From assembly GCA_007131625.1 (NCBI GenBank), contig SLQC01000096.1:1-49857 (forward strand): DNA of 49,857 nt. Reading direction: 5' to 3'. Under the pieces are notes generated by a model. The model searched no databases and was not told the DNA's origin. It saw only the letters and a program-made list of their open reading frames with translations. This DNA is from Balneolales bacterium (GTDB taxonomy: Bacteria; Bacteroidota; Rhodothermia; Balneolales; Natronogracilivirgulaceae). Below are positions 1,245 to 23,035 of this stretch, piece after piece. The translations under genes and the position numbers were made by a program. Position 1 is the first letter of the stretch. Every line of letters begins with the position of its first letter.

Positions 1245-1283
1245 ATATTTCATCTGATATAAGAAATCAAACATTATAAACAT
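1245..1283 (+). repeat. partial (3' half) copy of the ATGA-delimited repeat family, directly abutting the ATG at 1284
   Basis: catctgatataagaaatcaaacattataaacat aligns with the 3' half of unit B2 (catctgacattattaatcaaaacattttaaacag). Bases 1273..1295 are identical to 41712..41734. Confidence 0.55.
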
Positions 1284-2173
1284 ATGAAACGATCAATTTT
1301 CCCGCTGCTCATTGCAGCGATACTGATCCATGCCCCTTTTTTACTTGCCCAAAACGCATCGCTGCCGGCCAACCGGAACCGGATGTGGCCCCCGATGATA
1401 CGACTTACTGGGAATACAGCTTAAGAACCTCCTTAACCGGAACCCAGGCAAAGTATCAGAATTGGAGTCAGGGTGGGGTTGATAACGTGGCTATCCTGGC
1501 CGCAAGCGGATTCTCGGCTAAATATGCCAAAGAAATTTTTGCCTACAACCTGAACATCAATCTCGGGTACGGACAAACACGGCTCGGCGATGGTGATTTT
1601 ATCAAAAGCGATGACCAGATTCGAATTCGGAATCAGGTTCGGCGGCTGTTCCGCGACGAGCGATTCAGCACCATTTTCAATCTCAATTTCGAATCCCAAT
1701 TCACCGACGGGTTCGACAGAAACGTGCCGGATTCGGTAATTTCCGGTTTTTTTGCTCCGGCTTATCTGAGTCAGATTCTTGGCCTCAGTTATAATCCCGA
1801 TCGCCATTTGCGCTTCGAATCCGGTCTGGCAATGAAGCAGACATTTGTCAGAGATGTGGAACTTTCAACCCGGTACGGATTGCCCGAGGGTGATACATTT
1901 CGAAATGAAGCCGGTTTTTCCCTGCTGATCGGTTATGAACGTCGTATTATGGAAAGTATTTACTATGCCGGTTATGTGGAAACATTCACGAATGTGAACA
2001 AAAGTCTGACATCCACTGATGTCCTTTTTGTCAATGAAATAATCGGTAGAATCAACCGTTTTATCAGCGCAAATGTCGAGTTTGCCCTTGTCTATAATGA
2101 CGATATAATTGATGAGTTGCAGATTAAACAGATTATCTCGATGGGGTTTAATTACAGCTTTTTCGAAGAGTGA
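1284..2173 (+). CDS. DUF3078-family outer-membrane protein, apparently frameshifted near 1365-1385
   Basis: The ATG at 1284 encodes signal peptide MKRSIFPLLIAAILIHAPFLLAQ in frame 0 and stops at about 1430. The body (ORF 1385..2173, frame 2) has no signal peptide and is paralogous to 2492..3379 (NWSQGG vs DWAQGG; LQIKQI.S.GF.Y.F C-termini). Confidence 0.6.
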
Positions 2174-17998: not shown

Positions 17999-19048
17999 TT
18001 AATGTTGTAAACTGGAGAGCTCCCGTCTCACCACGGGAGCTACTTCGGTCCCAAGCAACTCAATCGCACGAAGTACCTTTTTCTGCGGAATACTGCCGAT
18101 CGTCAATTGCAGAAGGAACCGTTGGTGGCCGAAGATCTCGTGCTGGTACAGAATTTTATCTATTACTTCCTGTGGACTTCCAGCTACATTCGCCCCGTGA
18201 ATAGTGCACGATGCATCGAACTGATCACGTGACATCGGCGGCCAGCCACGCTCCCGCCCGATCCGGTCCATCGTCAGCTTGAATGCCGGAAACGCATCGT
18301 CCTTCGCCTGTTGTGAATCGTCCGCCAGAAATCCGTGGGAGTTGATGCTGAGCGCAGGAATCGGATGCCCCGCTTTTTGTGCTGCTTCCCGGTGAAGATG
18401 TGCGAAAGTAGCGAATTGTGCCGGTTGTCCACCGATGATGGCGATGGCCATAGGAAGCCCGAGCGCGCCGGTCCGCACAGCCGATTGCGGTGTGCCGCCA
18501 ACCGCTACCCAGACAGGAAGTGTATCCTGCACCGGCCGCGGGTACACACCACGATCGTCAATGTCAGTACGATGTTTGCCCGACCAGGTGATGCGCACTG
18601 ATTCGTTCAGTTGGAGCAAGAGCTTCAGTTTTTCAGCAAAGATCTCGTCATACTCCTGTAAATCGTATCCGAACAGAGGAAACGATTCGATAAACGATCC
18701 GCGTCCGGCCATTATCTCAGCACGGCCATTTGAAAGCAGATCCAGAGTGGCAAATTGTTGAAAAACCCGCACCGGATCTTCGGATCCGAGCACAGTCACC
18801 GCACTGCTCAACCGGATGTATTTGGTTCGCTCTGCAGCAGCAGCAAGAATCACAGCCGGCGCGGAAGAGACATACTCCGGACGATGATGCTCTCCAACTG
18901 CAAAAACATCCAATCCGACCTGATCAGACAACTCGGCCTCTTCCATCAGATTTCGCATACGTTGCTGCGGGGAAAGGGATTCGCCGTTTCCGGCCAATGG
19001 TGTGTTTTCGACAAAAGTGTAAATTCCTAATTCCATCGTTCTGATCAC
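17999..19048 (-). CDS. LLM-class (luciferase-like) flavin-dependent oxidoreductase
   Basis: About 350 aa with the TIM-barrel LLM pattern (FAVGEHH, AIAIIGG). Recognised by overall resemblance only. Confidence 0.6.
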
Positions 19049-19189
19049 GTTAATCGTTCAAAATTGGAGTAATGTTTCGTTTAAGACACAAACACTTGCT
19101 CAATACTCAATCAACTGTCGCCATGTGCAAGAAGTTTCTCAGCGCACAATTTGTTCCCACCGCACAAAAAGTTAAACCGATGCAATGGG

Positions 19190-19256
19190 AAATGCCCTAA
19201 GCACGATAGCAAATGTTTGACGCACGATAGCAAATGCCCTAAGCACGATAGCAAAT
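19190..19256. repeat. three 21-nt tandem repeats (core GCACGATAGCAAAT)
   Basis: Core at 19201, 19222 and 19243. Followed by AGCAGTTGT x2 at 19269 and 19289. Confidence 0.85.
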
Positions 19257-21562: not shown

Positions 21563-21810
21563 AGCGAAAAACACCGGTCGGTATATCTAAGTGTCCGTTC
21601 ATAGTCTCGATTTAACGAGTTTTGCTTTATCCAACAGAGGGATATGTCCAATGTACATTTTTTTTCAGATCCAGCCGCACAAAGTACTTCCAGGCATCAA
21701 GAAATGTAAGGCATTGTATCACAAATGGTTATAGATATTCAGATTCCGTATTATGTGCTGAAATATACCATTATCTTAATCTACCCAACTGCAGAGAAAC
21801 TGCAAAAGAA

Positions 21811-21925
21811 CGTTTTGTATTTAAATTTGCAAAAAATATGTCACATGGAGCCCCCATGGCATAATCATCCGCCTGTGTGTCAAGACTTTGCAATGGGTTT
21901 CTCGCTTACGCGTTTCACTGGGCAT
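21811..21925 (-). repeat. repeat unit C2 (115 nt, longer 5' part) of the ATGA-delimited family
   Basis: The minus strand reads ATGCCCAGTGAAACGCGTAAGCGAG...GACACACAGGCGGATGATTATGCCATGGGGGCTCCATGTGACAT.... It shares the ACACAGG-N3-ATGATTA box and the CATGG/CCATG hairpin. Confidence 0.7.
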
Positions 21926-22019
21926 CTGTTTGAATTTTCTGATTTATAATGTCAGATGGAGCATCCATGTGTTTAATCATGTGCTTTAGTGTCGAAAATT
22001 TTCGCCATGGATGTTTCAT
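21926..22019 (-). repeat. repeat unit C1 (94 nt) of the ATGA-delimited family
   Basis: The minus strand reads ATGAAACATCCATGGCGAAAATTTTCGACACTAAAGCACATGATTAAACACATGGATGCTCCATCTGACATTATAAATCAG.... It is highly similar to B2 along its whole length. Confidence 0.85.
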
Positions 22020-22032
22020 CTTCAACCGCAGG

Positions 22033-22240
22033 ATTGTAATATCCGATATACCGGCGAAAGCGTATGAATATGTTGTTTATGGCAAATCGGCCATTGAGTG
22101 GGTCATGGAGCGTTATCAGGTTACGGTCCACAAGGCCAGCGGTATCAAAAAAACGATGCGAACAATTGGGTGGATCAAGTCGGCAATCCGGGATTTATCC
22201 TGGATTAACTGCTGAGAGTGATCAATTTATTAAATATTGC
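22033..22240 (+). pseudogene. C-terminal remnant of a large helicase/N6-methylase (type ISP-like) restriction-modification enzyme
   Basis: IPAKAYEYVVYGKSAIEWVMERYQVTVHKASGIK, then after a frameshift in an A7 run, NDANNWVDQVGNPGFILD*LLRVINLL. I recall this tail motif from type ISP R-M enzymes. There is an internal frameshift plus a stop, and no upstream body. Confidence 0.5.
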
Positions 22241-22253
22241 TGGAGGCTATTCT

Positions 22254-22668
22254 ATGATTTTGAAAATATATAAGTTAACAGATATAAAAACGCTTGTATA
22301 TGCATTAGGTTTGACGGTGTTTTTTGTAACATTTGGATGTGATTTGTCGATAGATCAAGAGGAATCGAACTCTGTCAATGAAACCACCTGGTGGATTCAT
22401 GGAGACACGCATGTTGGACATGAAACCTATAAAAATCAGCTGTCCAATGCTGTTACGGATGTTAATTCTTTGGGTATTTCCAATTTTGCGGTTACACTGG
22501 GAGATTGTATTGATGGTTCATGCACACTGGCATGAATGGTTTCTTGATGAAGATTTCGGTGGACACGGTTTTCCCCAGTTATTTATTAATAATGTGCTAT
22601 ATGATAATGAATCGGCATTTATGACCATAAAGGATGGGGAGGATGCAACAATTATAACTTTCCGGTAA
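22254..22668 (+). pseudogene. truncated/internally deleted metallophosphoesterase lipoprotein
   Basis: Signal/lipobox LTVFFVTFGC, motif I WWIHGDTHVGH and motif II LGDCID, then a stop after 93 codons from the Met at 22254. A second frame carries a short C-terminal-like piece. The GNHD-type motifs are absent. Confidence 0.4.
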
Positions 22669-23035
22669 CAAGAAATCATGAAAATCAAGAATGGATAAAG
22701 GTTTTTGATCGAGAGACATATGTAATTGAACTTGAAAAGTAATGATGTAAGTCCATTTGGTTGTAATCACTCATATTTAGTGAATTGTCACGGGTCAAAT
22801 GAAGACCTGCAACAGATGCCGGCCAATAATCATCTGTTCGGATGTGGGGAGGGTATCCTGCTTTGTCCCATTCCGCTCCAGTGGTTTCCGGCAGGTTTAA
22901 GACTCCTGATGGAAGCCGGCATCTTGTTCTATCGCTCAATCAGATAAATGATTTCAGTGTTATTACTAAAGTATATTGAAGAGTCTGTTTCGGTAGCATT
23001 AATCTTACATTTATTTGCGAACCTGACATAAAAAA

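Follow-up and report, generated by a model that had tools for sequence, protein, structure and literature searches.

A dispersed repeat with RNA-like structure that contains the start codon of its downstream gene, and two orphan copies beside a restriction-modification remnant in a Balneolales contig

The two minus-strand repeat copies at 21811-22019 of the window (the whole stretch of 49,857 nucleotides analysed here) belong to a dispersed family whose unit is a ~95 nt RNA-like structure that holds a start codon together with a built-in decoy and has been copied before unrelated genes. Of the readings considered, we place first that of a leader RNA module which proliferates and masks the start codon, and regard it as about an even call. 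The family matches no Rfam 15 model and was not found in the open-access papers searched; the kinds of element to which it is related, dispersed structured repeats and start-site-occluding leaders, are known.

Units of the family in the window

An nhmmer profile trained solely on copies from other genomes found exactly seven units in the 50 kb window. These units, together with two partial copies, are as follows.

21926..22019, minus strand: C1, a complete unit and the 5′ member of a two-unit orphan array (repeat search, nhmmer)
21811..21925, minus strand: C2, a longer and more degenerate unit with a 5′ extension of ~20 nt (nhmmer, box match, sequence)
41434..41721, plus strand: A1-A3, a three-unit array upstream of glpD that ends on the ATG at 41723 (nhmmer)
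41723-41758, plus strand: collapsed fourth unit of the A array
44275..44469, plus strand: B1-B2, a two-unit array ending at the nfeD start at 44476 (nhmmer, NfeD domains)
1247..1293, plus strand: solo 3′ tail of a unit with ATGAAACGATCA, marginal (repeat search, nhmmer)

With this external-only profile, C1 was matched at 22022-21923 (E 7e-11; 47.7 bits, the second-lowest unit score in the window) and C2 at 21897-21817 (E 1e-11, model positions 21-107 only), these two being the lowest-scoring units, and the other arrays gave E values of 1e-13 to 4e-18 (A1-A3) and of 6e-18 and 1e-15 (B1-B2). When all Balneolales rows were removed from the profile, C1 and C2 were still matched with E values of 3e-10 and 5e-11, respectively. 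The pair of minus-strand copies that an earlier note had read from the letters of this DNA is therefore confirmed by an external profile (E ~1e-10 to 1e-11), and at the sequence level C1 and C2 can be counted as true members of the family. The high similarity to B2 that the note had claimed for C1 was also recovered, with 84% complementarity over 87 nt (21933-22019 against 44373-44459), and pairwise identities identified B2 as the closest relative of C1.

The ACACAGG-N3-ATGATTA box, when searched with up to two mismatches, occurs seven times in the window against a chance expectation of 0.38. C2 carries the box as previously described, in an exact match at 21862-21878 (ACACAGGCGGATGATTA), and the box of C1 is degenerate (ACTAAAGCACATGATTA), C1 having been detected instead by the repeat search and the profile. 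One box copy with two mismatches (42619-42635) lies outside the units and is probably a chance match. The solo tail was recognised by the repeat search (80% over 49 nt) and by nhmmer (E 0.047, model positions 72-117), and an exact match of 22 nt links it to the sequence where A3 ends and glpD begins. Gene identities were assigned from Pfam DAO and DAO_C for glpD and from NfeD domains for nfeD. The A2 and A3 units are of a Balneolales type, and the window also encodes a protein with a CHU_C type IX secretion domain.

Unit architecture and predicted helices

Units are ~92-115 nt long, typically ~95 nt. The 5′ half comprises AUGAAA, the 5′ arm of helix P1, CAUGA, a variable hairpin (P2) and ACACAG-N4-AUGAUUA, and the 3′ half comprises the 3′ arm of P1, UUCCAYNUGAC, an A-rich stretch and AUAAACANAUGAAA. 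The last AUG of a unit either starts translation of the downstream gene or, within an array, opens the following unit. The two ends of the unit are not inverted repeats of each other, and the flanks have only ATGAAA in common; no conservation is seen in the sequence that precedes the 5′ AUG of first units, and no GTAG-type head is visible in the unit alignment.

As judged from comparison of the copies, three predicted helices per unit are backed by compensatory changes. In P1, among the units of the listed loci, position 7 is occupied by U-A (45) or C-G (44) and position 8 by C-G (27), G-C (24) or A-U (9); one P1 class contains tandem G-A pairs. The third helix crosses P1 and pairs GAUUA-X with Y-UAAAC, directly 5′ of the start codon, with an X-Y pair (column 29-51) that is U-A in 69 cases, A-U in 16 and never U-U. 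The start-codon helix pairs CAYNUG with CANRUG, which contains the 3′ AUG, and closes an A-rich loop of ~23 nt. Its pair types are CAUCUG/CAGAUG (54), CAUGUG/CACAUG (22) and CAUAUG/CAUAUG (16), in addition to G-U wobbles, and its central pair is C-G (45), G-C (21) or A-U (15), again with wobbles. This helix is fully paired in 98 of 123 units, compared with a mean of 50 and a maximum of 64 for shuffled partners. Covariation reached 0.117 for the start-codon helix against 0.032 in shuffles, and 0.179 for P1 and the third helix against 0.077, with 0 of 500 shuffles as high in either case and slid-partner controls at 0.075 or below; because the compared sequences are related, the shuffle controls overstate the significance of these values.

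The structure test was based on anchor-based extraction and a gap-free derived alignment. RNAalifold applied to MAFFT alignments of the seven window copies or of 123 copies returned almost no structure, which is explained by misalignment of the helix arms, and single-sequence folds of whole units were not significant compared with shuffles.

Two of the pairings compete. UUCCAU can pair either with the 5′ AUGAAA, forming the outer part of P1, or with the 3′ AUGAAA, and a conserved A-C mismatch is present in both competing helices (78 of 94 units). In all six units folded, the predicted minimum-energy structure consisted of the inner P1 and the start-codon helix, and it was 2.6-3.8 kcal/mol better than the fully closed P1. 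On the sense strand, A-C oppositions outnumber G-U pairs in P1 (26 versus 8, conserved A-C excluded) and in P2 (20 versus 13), and in the two 3′ helices G-U is slightly ahead of A-C.

Units could also be read as small protein genes or leader peptides (e.g. MKHPW...) with ATGA stop/start overlaps. In B2 and some Cyclobacteriaceae units, the frame of the 5′ AUG does stay open as far as a UGA overlapping the AUG that follows; against this, read-through to that stop was found in 12 of 105 units, while 40 stop within six codons and 51 elsewhere, unit lengths modulo 3 are spread 49/35/21, and conservation tracks base pairing and not the reading frame. Given that the frame of the 5′ AUG is unconserved, units are not peptide genes, and we consider this coding explanation, which is effectively refuted family-wide, extremely improbable. 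A promoter within the unit and an integron attC site were also dropped on the basis of the sequence, since no consensus is conserved. The fragments CUGA, GAAA and AAACAG gave a likeness to hammerhead and hairpin ribozymes, which was rejected because the cores do not fit and Rfam gives no support.

Distribution and relation to genes

A census was performed with a degenerate pattern derived from the window copies, using one genome per species, and yielded at least 119 loci. Of the 119 matches listed, 116 proved genuine; they come from Bacteroidota, Balneolales and Ignavibacteria, the Bacteroidota carriers among them being Cyclobacteriaceae, Marinilabiliales, Flavobacteriales, Sphingobacteriales, Saprospiraceae and Bacteroidales. 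The three outlier loci (alphaproteobacterial, gammaproteobacterial and an archaeal MAG) have neither the flanking features nor a profile match. The earlier view that the element is dispersed, rather than a local duplication at glp, is borne out both by the three arrays in the window and by genomes of three phylum-level lineages, and the copies found elsewhere show that it is not restricted to this window.

An ORF of at least 80 codons starts at the 3′ end of the array in 82 of the 126 evaluable arrays listed (65%), such an ORF lies within 150 nt in a further 16 (13%), and none was present in 28 (22%). In the arrays listed, the element is always oriented toward its downstream ORF. This co-orientation indicates that the orientation of the element is tied to the gene and is not free, with C1-C2 representing an orphan array on the other strand. 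The suggestion that the element occurs in either orientation is not supported if read as orientation-free insertion, as the element points at the downstream ORF among the 126 evaluable arrays listed. At the listed loci, at least 90% of the downstream proteins begin with MK (Met-Lys). Their functions are unrelated: the 67 listed ORFs contain 105 Pfam families, none of which occurs in more than two ORFs, without enrichment, and a dUTPase is the one recurring orthologue pair among the 67 downstream genes listed.

The listed arrays contain one to five units and mix sequence classes that are common to several genera. Units from separate contigs of Lunatibacter salilacus share 95-97% identity, which extends to the variable hairpin, and Algoriphagus aquaeductus has three identical tandem units. 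In keeping with the mobility suggested in the earlier note, the element acts as a proliferating repeat, with such near-identical copies on separate contigs, arrays of up to five units and positions that are unconserved between genomes. The window copies, with identities of 53-81%, are older. Arrays without an ORF within 150 nt scored 64.4 bits versus 61.8 bits for the others (p = 0.35), although this comparison is biased because loci were seeded with an intact core pattern; intact orphan arrays fit selfish spread as well as function.

BLAST searches of PLSDB plasmids with two arrays gave no match, and a pattern scan of viral contigs gave five matches, only one of which was a marginal, partial profile match. 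Rfam 15 returned no match for the window at the gathering score, only noise for 41380-41800 at E values up to 10, and no match for eight array-rich loci at E values up to 0.1. No description of the element was found in the open-access literature, including searches with literal sequence strings.

A proposed start-codon-occluding leader module and its alternatives

A leader RNA module is ranked first because a covarying helix at the start codon, a decoy AUGAAA and a helix reaching positions -10 to -3 would be expected of a device governing access to the initiation site. A unit contains the start codon, so that every mRNA of the gene must include the 3′ portion of the unit at least; solely from this position, we infer that units would be transcribed in the sense direction. 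According to the proposed mechanism, the unit would be transcribed as part of the mRNA leader. Pairing of UUCCAYNUG with the 3′ AUGAAA would hide the start codon, pairing with the identical 5′ AUGAAA would instead complete P1, and competition between the two pairings would set or switch the rate of initiation. In tandem units, the competition would be chained from one unit to the next.

The setting in which this would operate is that of organisms without Shine-Dalgarno recognition, in which initiation would be affected by structure around the start codon. Translation in Bacteroidota and related lineages begins without Shine-Dalgarno pairing, and to our knowledge little is known about the regulation of initiation in these organisms. 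One published study describes initiation as dependent on an unstructured start region and not on Shine-Dalgarno pairing (PMC6847099). The element would be a general means of controlling translation, or else a mobile element able to insert at gene starts without killing the gene.

The invariant unpaired ACACAG and GAC imply a partner. A bolder proposal, which we put forward only as a tentative possibility, is that the units form a self-propagating, previously undescribed class of leaders, a standard, switchable start cassette placed on arbitrary genes across Bacteroidota, Balneolales and Ignavibacteria, which would constitute a genome-wide translational regulon addressed by one partner of ACACAG/AUGAUUA/GAC. 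The parts of such a cassette would be the 5′ decoy AUGAAA, an anti-start box, a pseudoknot and the real AUGAAA.

The main rival is a DNA-level, non-autonomous mobile element of the REP/REPIN-RAYT or IS200/IS605 hairpin kind, which we judge rather unlikely overall. Hairpins might be recognised in single-stranded DNA by a postulated trans-acting HUH transposase; internal boxes that pair with the 3′ end may act as guides for cleavage or target-site choice; strand-specific insertion at ATGAAA could regenerate the start codon, with copies at gene starts surviving selection; and insertion into the restriction-modification (R-M) gene discussed below may have occurred at a TTTCAT within it. Unrelated loci with nearly identical copies, head-to-tail arrays, the lack of positional conservation between genomes, orphan copies as intact as gene-linked ones, and an R-M junction that falls on TTTCAT are all consistent with such an element. 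So is the surplus of A-C oppositions relative to G-U pairs in sense-strand P1 and P2, a pattern that a sense RNA would not favour. In IS608, a guide sequence pairs with the cleavage site, and by analogy the box at the hairpin foot, which pairs with the element end, might play a comparable part. Several observations are difficult to reconcile with this rival. The HUH transposase partner is only postulated, terminal inverted repeats are lacking, and there is no duplication beyond ATGAAA. The loop nucleotides are conserved over three phylum-level lineages, far more broadly than in known REP families; a co-oriented ORF at or near the 3′ end in 78% of the listed arrays would need strong selection or exquisite targeting; and there were no copies in PLSDB plasmids and only one marginal match in viral contigs.

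The AAACAG/ATGA context, named in the earlier note as a possible preferred insertion context, does not mark a duplicated insertion target but is the unit's own 3′ tail and start codon, which pair with an internal box, and no target-site duplications were seen beyond the common ATGAAA, nor any terminal inverted repeats. Assignment as a MITE was likewise rejected, as the defining combination of terminal inverted repeats and a target-site duplication is absent.

A third possibility is a riboswitch- or thermometer-like sensor, in which a binding pocket of ACACAG, GG and AUGAUUA would be built from P1, P2 and a third helix that resembles a pseudoknot, and the response to a global signal (an ion, pH acting via the A-C pair, temperature or an alarmone) or to a global RNA-binding protein would determine whether the start codon becomes free. 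The complex conserved architecture with invariant unpaired nucleotides, the helix that crosses P1 and reaches -10 to -3 of the start site, the mutually exclusive pairings around the start codon and the widely conserved A-C mismatch would all suit a sensor. However, the downstream genes have none of the coherence expected of a metabolite riboswitch (105 Pfam families in 67 listed ORFs), the near-identical copies within genomes, including the variable hairpin, reflect recent copying and not gene-by-gene maintenance, and no Rfam family matches. We regard this sensor reading as improbable, more so than the mobile DNA element.

Comparison with known systems

REP/BIME and REPIN-RAYT systems of Enterobacteria and Pseudomonas resemble the element in being short, structured intergenic repeats with many copies per genome, in their head-to-tail or mosaic arrays of mixed classes, and in their near-identical copies within a genome. 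REPs, however, are simple palindromes with a GTAG-type head that lie mostly after genes or between convergent genes, and their families are confined to a genus or family, whereas the present element keeps its loop sequences over three phylum-level lineages, has three helices with invariant loops and has the start codon of its downstream gene built into it. The BOX elements of Streptococcus pneumoniae and the Correia elements of Neisseria are likewise modular, structure-forming dispersed repeats, often located in 5′ regions, which are transcribed and alter the expression of adjacent genes. They have no sequence relation to the element, contain no start codon and have no fixed phase with one; Correia elements are also bounded by terminal inverted repeats and duplicate a TA, and neither feature was observed in the present element.

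A possible likeness to IS200/IS605 hairpin elements (PATEs) would consist of a hairpin with an internal sequence that pairs with the element end, strand-specific insertion and the absence of inverted terminal repeats. That family combines subterminal hairpins, insertion 3′ of a fixed short target and a TnpA acting in trans; the trait observed in the present units is the pairing of an internal box with the element end. In IS200/IS605 elements the paired box lies 5′ of the hairpin, whereas here it lies 3′ of it, and the tie to a start codon is a feature of the present element and not of that family.

With translational riboswitches (e.g. the pseudoknotted preQ1-II and SAM-II) and thermometers (ROSE, fourU), the leader module would share an initiation region hidden by a helix that is weakened by mismatches and has to compete with another pairing, as well as a helix that extends into the bases immediately 5′ of the start codon. 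Those systems control coherent sets of genes and are maintained gene by gene, in contrast to the unrelated genes, copying, arrays and lack of an Rfam match described here. The nearest published concept is that of the TAACTGA repeats, heptamers that precede start codons and are known from Beggiatoaceae and Cyanobacteria as well as a few Bacteroidetes (MacGregor 2015, PMC4679880). Like the present element, these repeats are abundant and intergenic, lie in the 'forward' direction and end a few nucleotides from start codons; they also show no pattern of downstream function and a patchy spread, and a post-transcriptional role was proposed for them (PMC4679880). They are, however, unstructured tandem repeats of 7 nt, whereas the element described here is ~95 nt long, has covarying helices and includes the start codon.

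The orphan C array and the R-M remnant

The C array adjoins the remains of an R-M gene, and three further features define this locus.

22018..22229, plus strand: remnant of a Type ISP R-M gene, the last ~70 codons (Pfam, tblastx, homologue alignment)
22014..22019: junction hexamer TTTCAT, the reverse complement of the unit 5′ AUGAAA and also R-M codons
21563..21810: gene-free stretch from the stop codon of an alpha/beta hydrolase gene to C2

The R-M tail reported beside C1 is real, as indicated by both Pfam and tblastx, but it starts at 22018 and not at about 22033. The Pfam Type_ISP_C match covers only profile positions 278-332 of 342 (E 5e-13 to 3e-16), and the remnant contains a frameshift at an A7 run (22147-22153) and an in-frame TAA at 22206-22208. 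In the full-length Type ISP relatives at two loci (L144 and L145), Mrr_cat, ResIII, ISP_coupler and Type_ISP_C extend over ~5 kb. A tblastx comparison of these two ~5 kb regions with the window gave matches only at 22018-22149 and 22149-22229, and no other part of the gene was found in the 50 kb. Pfam searches of the plus frames of 21563-22260 detected nothing apart from Type_ISP_C; the full domain set of a Type ISP enzyme (Mrr-like nuclease, ResIII helicase, methyltransferase, ISP coupler and Type_ISP_C, ~1500 aa) is thus not present. As the best 120 homologues of the tail are all short 'proteins', a stand-alone small-protein family was also considered, and was rejected because those at L144 and L145 are the last fragments of frameshift-ridden full-length genes.

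C1 and C2 differ from working members of the family in several respects. C1 begins with the expected 5′ AUGAAA (TTTCAT on the plus strand, 22014-22019), is paired at 11 of 14 P1 positions and carries CAUCUG/CAGAUG; its 3′ AUG is followed by CCC, not AAA, and runs into C2. C2 contains a stem, CCCAU/AUGGG, read from the sequence, and carries CAUGUG, but the pairing partner has decayed: its 3′ end reads AAAUACAAAACG in place of the expected AAACACAUGAAA, the start codon is lost, and no ORF follows. These features identify both copies as relics. The array points leftwards on the minus strand at the 3′ end of the convergent hydrolase gene, so the gene that it served would be expected in 21563..21810; no substantial ORF was found in that stretch, the minus frames having been inspected by eye. 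C1-C2 is a decaying orphan array with no downstream gene.

From the tblastx start at 22018, R-M homology begins 1-2 nt from the outer end of C1 at 22019, and TTTCAT also encodes the first aligned R-M residues (F, I), so up to 5 nt of the junction could belong to both sides. This may reflect a microhomology site. We estimate that a random, independent breakpoint in the ~670 nt gene-free stretch would land this close ~1.5% of the time, and the fact that the two boundaries coincide exactly favours, without proving, a causal connection.

In the simplest history, a minus-strand gene headed by the C array and the plus-strand Type ISP gene would once have diverged from a common spacer. A single deletion, its left end set by the unit edge, would then have taken out the spacer together with ~95% of the R-M gene, and the junction at the 5′ edge of C1 would probably reflect a short TTCAT microhomology or hairpin-promoted slippage. 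The C array's own gene would have been lost separately, and the start codon of C2 would have decayed.

A stronger version, in which recombination or slippage at the unit made the repeat itself the cause of the R-M gene loss, an involvement that the earlier note had raised, is possible but not favoured. The adjoining boundaries (22018 and 22019), the absence of the rest of the ~5 kb gene from the window and a hexamer that could be common to both sides are consistent with it. On the other hand, there is a single junction without a comparator genome; the region 21563-23035 is of low GC content and rich in short broken ORFs, so that several unrelated deletions may have occurred; and the unit edge is also where an older spacer would begin, such that deletion of the spacer and the 5′ part of the R-M gene would look alike. 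A loss caused by the repeat would be compatible with any reading of the element itself.

A close relative with an intact R-M locus was not found by flanking-gene look-ups or a metagenome scan. Exact-protein look-ups with both flanking genes returned only short Logan contigs of the same sample, and the metagenome scan with the hydrolase returned relatives of at most 58% identity, without synteny and without units.

Such units also have practical consequences, as they break short-read assemblies, create false ORF starts and mark decaying regions. As the earlier note had stated, the start of the predicted ORF 21949-22215 falls within the reverse complement of C1, with ~24 codons and not 28 derived from the repeat. 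This ORF and the extended N-terminus of glpD are both false ORF starts created by units, and the Logan contigs of this sample stop inside C1-C2.

Junctions of the repeat unit with glpD and nfeD

In the annotated glpD ORF, which follows array A1-A3, the first 12 codons (MKRSEMLHKVQN, 41723-41758) resemble a collapsed fourth repeat unit, in which the 5′ ATGAAAC is fused to GATGCTCCA...TTCAAAACATG. Translation of glpD itself probably starts at 41759, with the ATG immediately 5′ of the GGGATG FAD motif. At the 3′ end of B1-B2, at 44460-44478, the nfeD junction CAGATGAA is present twice (AAACAGATGAACAGATGAAG). This duplication creates a mini-ORF of three codons that ends in a UGA overlapping the start of nfeD. 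The same 8 nt duplication was seen again at three loci (L086, L097 and L125), from Maribacter, Balneolales and Formosa genomes.

Units in other genomes

In many units, purines predominate among the four variable bases of the core 5′ of AUGAUUA, and the sequence is often GGAGG (e.g., at loci L027, L050, L077 and L037 of other assemblies: ACACAGGAGGAUGAUUA). Together with UGAU, and compared with the 16S 3′ end, GGAGG would look like an extended Shine-Dalgarno sequence in which a single base is bulged. The Balneolales units, including the copies in the window, have no Shine-Dalgarno-like GGAGG core.

Among the 67 genes found downstream of unit arrays, the only orthologous pair was a dUTPase gene, which has a unit upstream in both Lunatibacter (Cytophagales; L053) and Labilibaculum (Marinilabiliales; L090). 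The two units belong to different sequence classes, and a single orthologous pair is about the number expected by chance. The unit profile also gave a partial match (E = 8e-7, model positions 34-88) on one viral contig, IMG/VR IMGVR_UViG_3300003272_000029 (L004, 2552-2607).

Contig ends and probable gene remnants around C2-C1

For both genes flanking the C array, the sole other assemblies are Logan contigs (L001 and L143) from one sequencing run (SRR7083934). Against window positions 21790-21953, these contigs end at about 21790 and resume at about 21953; because the ends fall inside C2-C1, they suggest that short-read assembly was broken by the repeat.

The R-M tail has as its 120 best homologues in the database (P0001-P0120) only "proteins" of 74-139 aa, many of them exactly 99 aa long and beginning at an internal Met (MRFP...). 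In both long contigs examined, L144 (409-5318) and L145 (501-5300), the Type ISP gene is split over its full length into 8-10 small ORFs, a pattern explained either by pseudogenes or by erroneous indels introduced in long-read assembly. Beside the R-M stump, the lowest-GC part of the window (22218-23035; 0.395) holds a series of short overlapping ORFs without Pfam matches, which are probably further decayed genes. One of these ORFs carries a GDTHVGH motif that recalls metallophosphoesterases.

Other features of the window

Three further features were recorded:

1283, signal-peptide-like ORF, starting at ATGAAACGATCA and ending after 46 codons
1385-2173, DUF3078 domain ORF, in a different frame from the ORF at 1283
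19185-19256, tandem repeat with a 21 nt period (ATAGCAAATGCCCTAAGCACG), about 3.4 copies

The split ORF pair at 1283-2173, which comes directly after a solo repeat tail, is either one gene broken by a frameshift or the product of an error in the assembly. The tandem repeat occupies the spacer upstream of a luciferase-like monooxygenase gene (17999-19048, minus strand) and may be an operator array.
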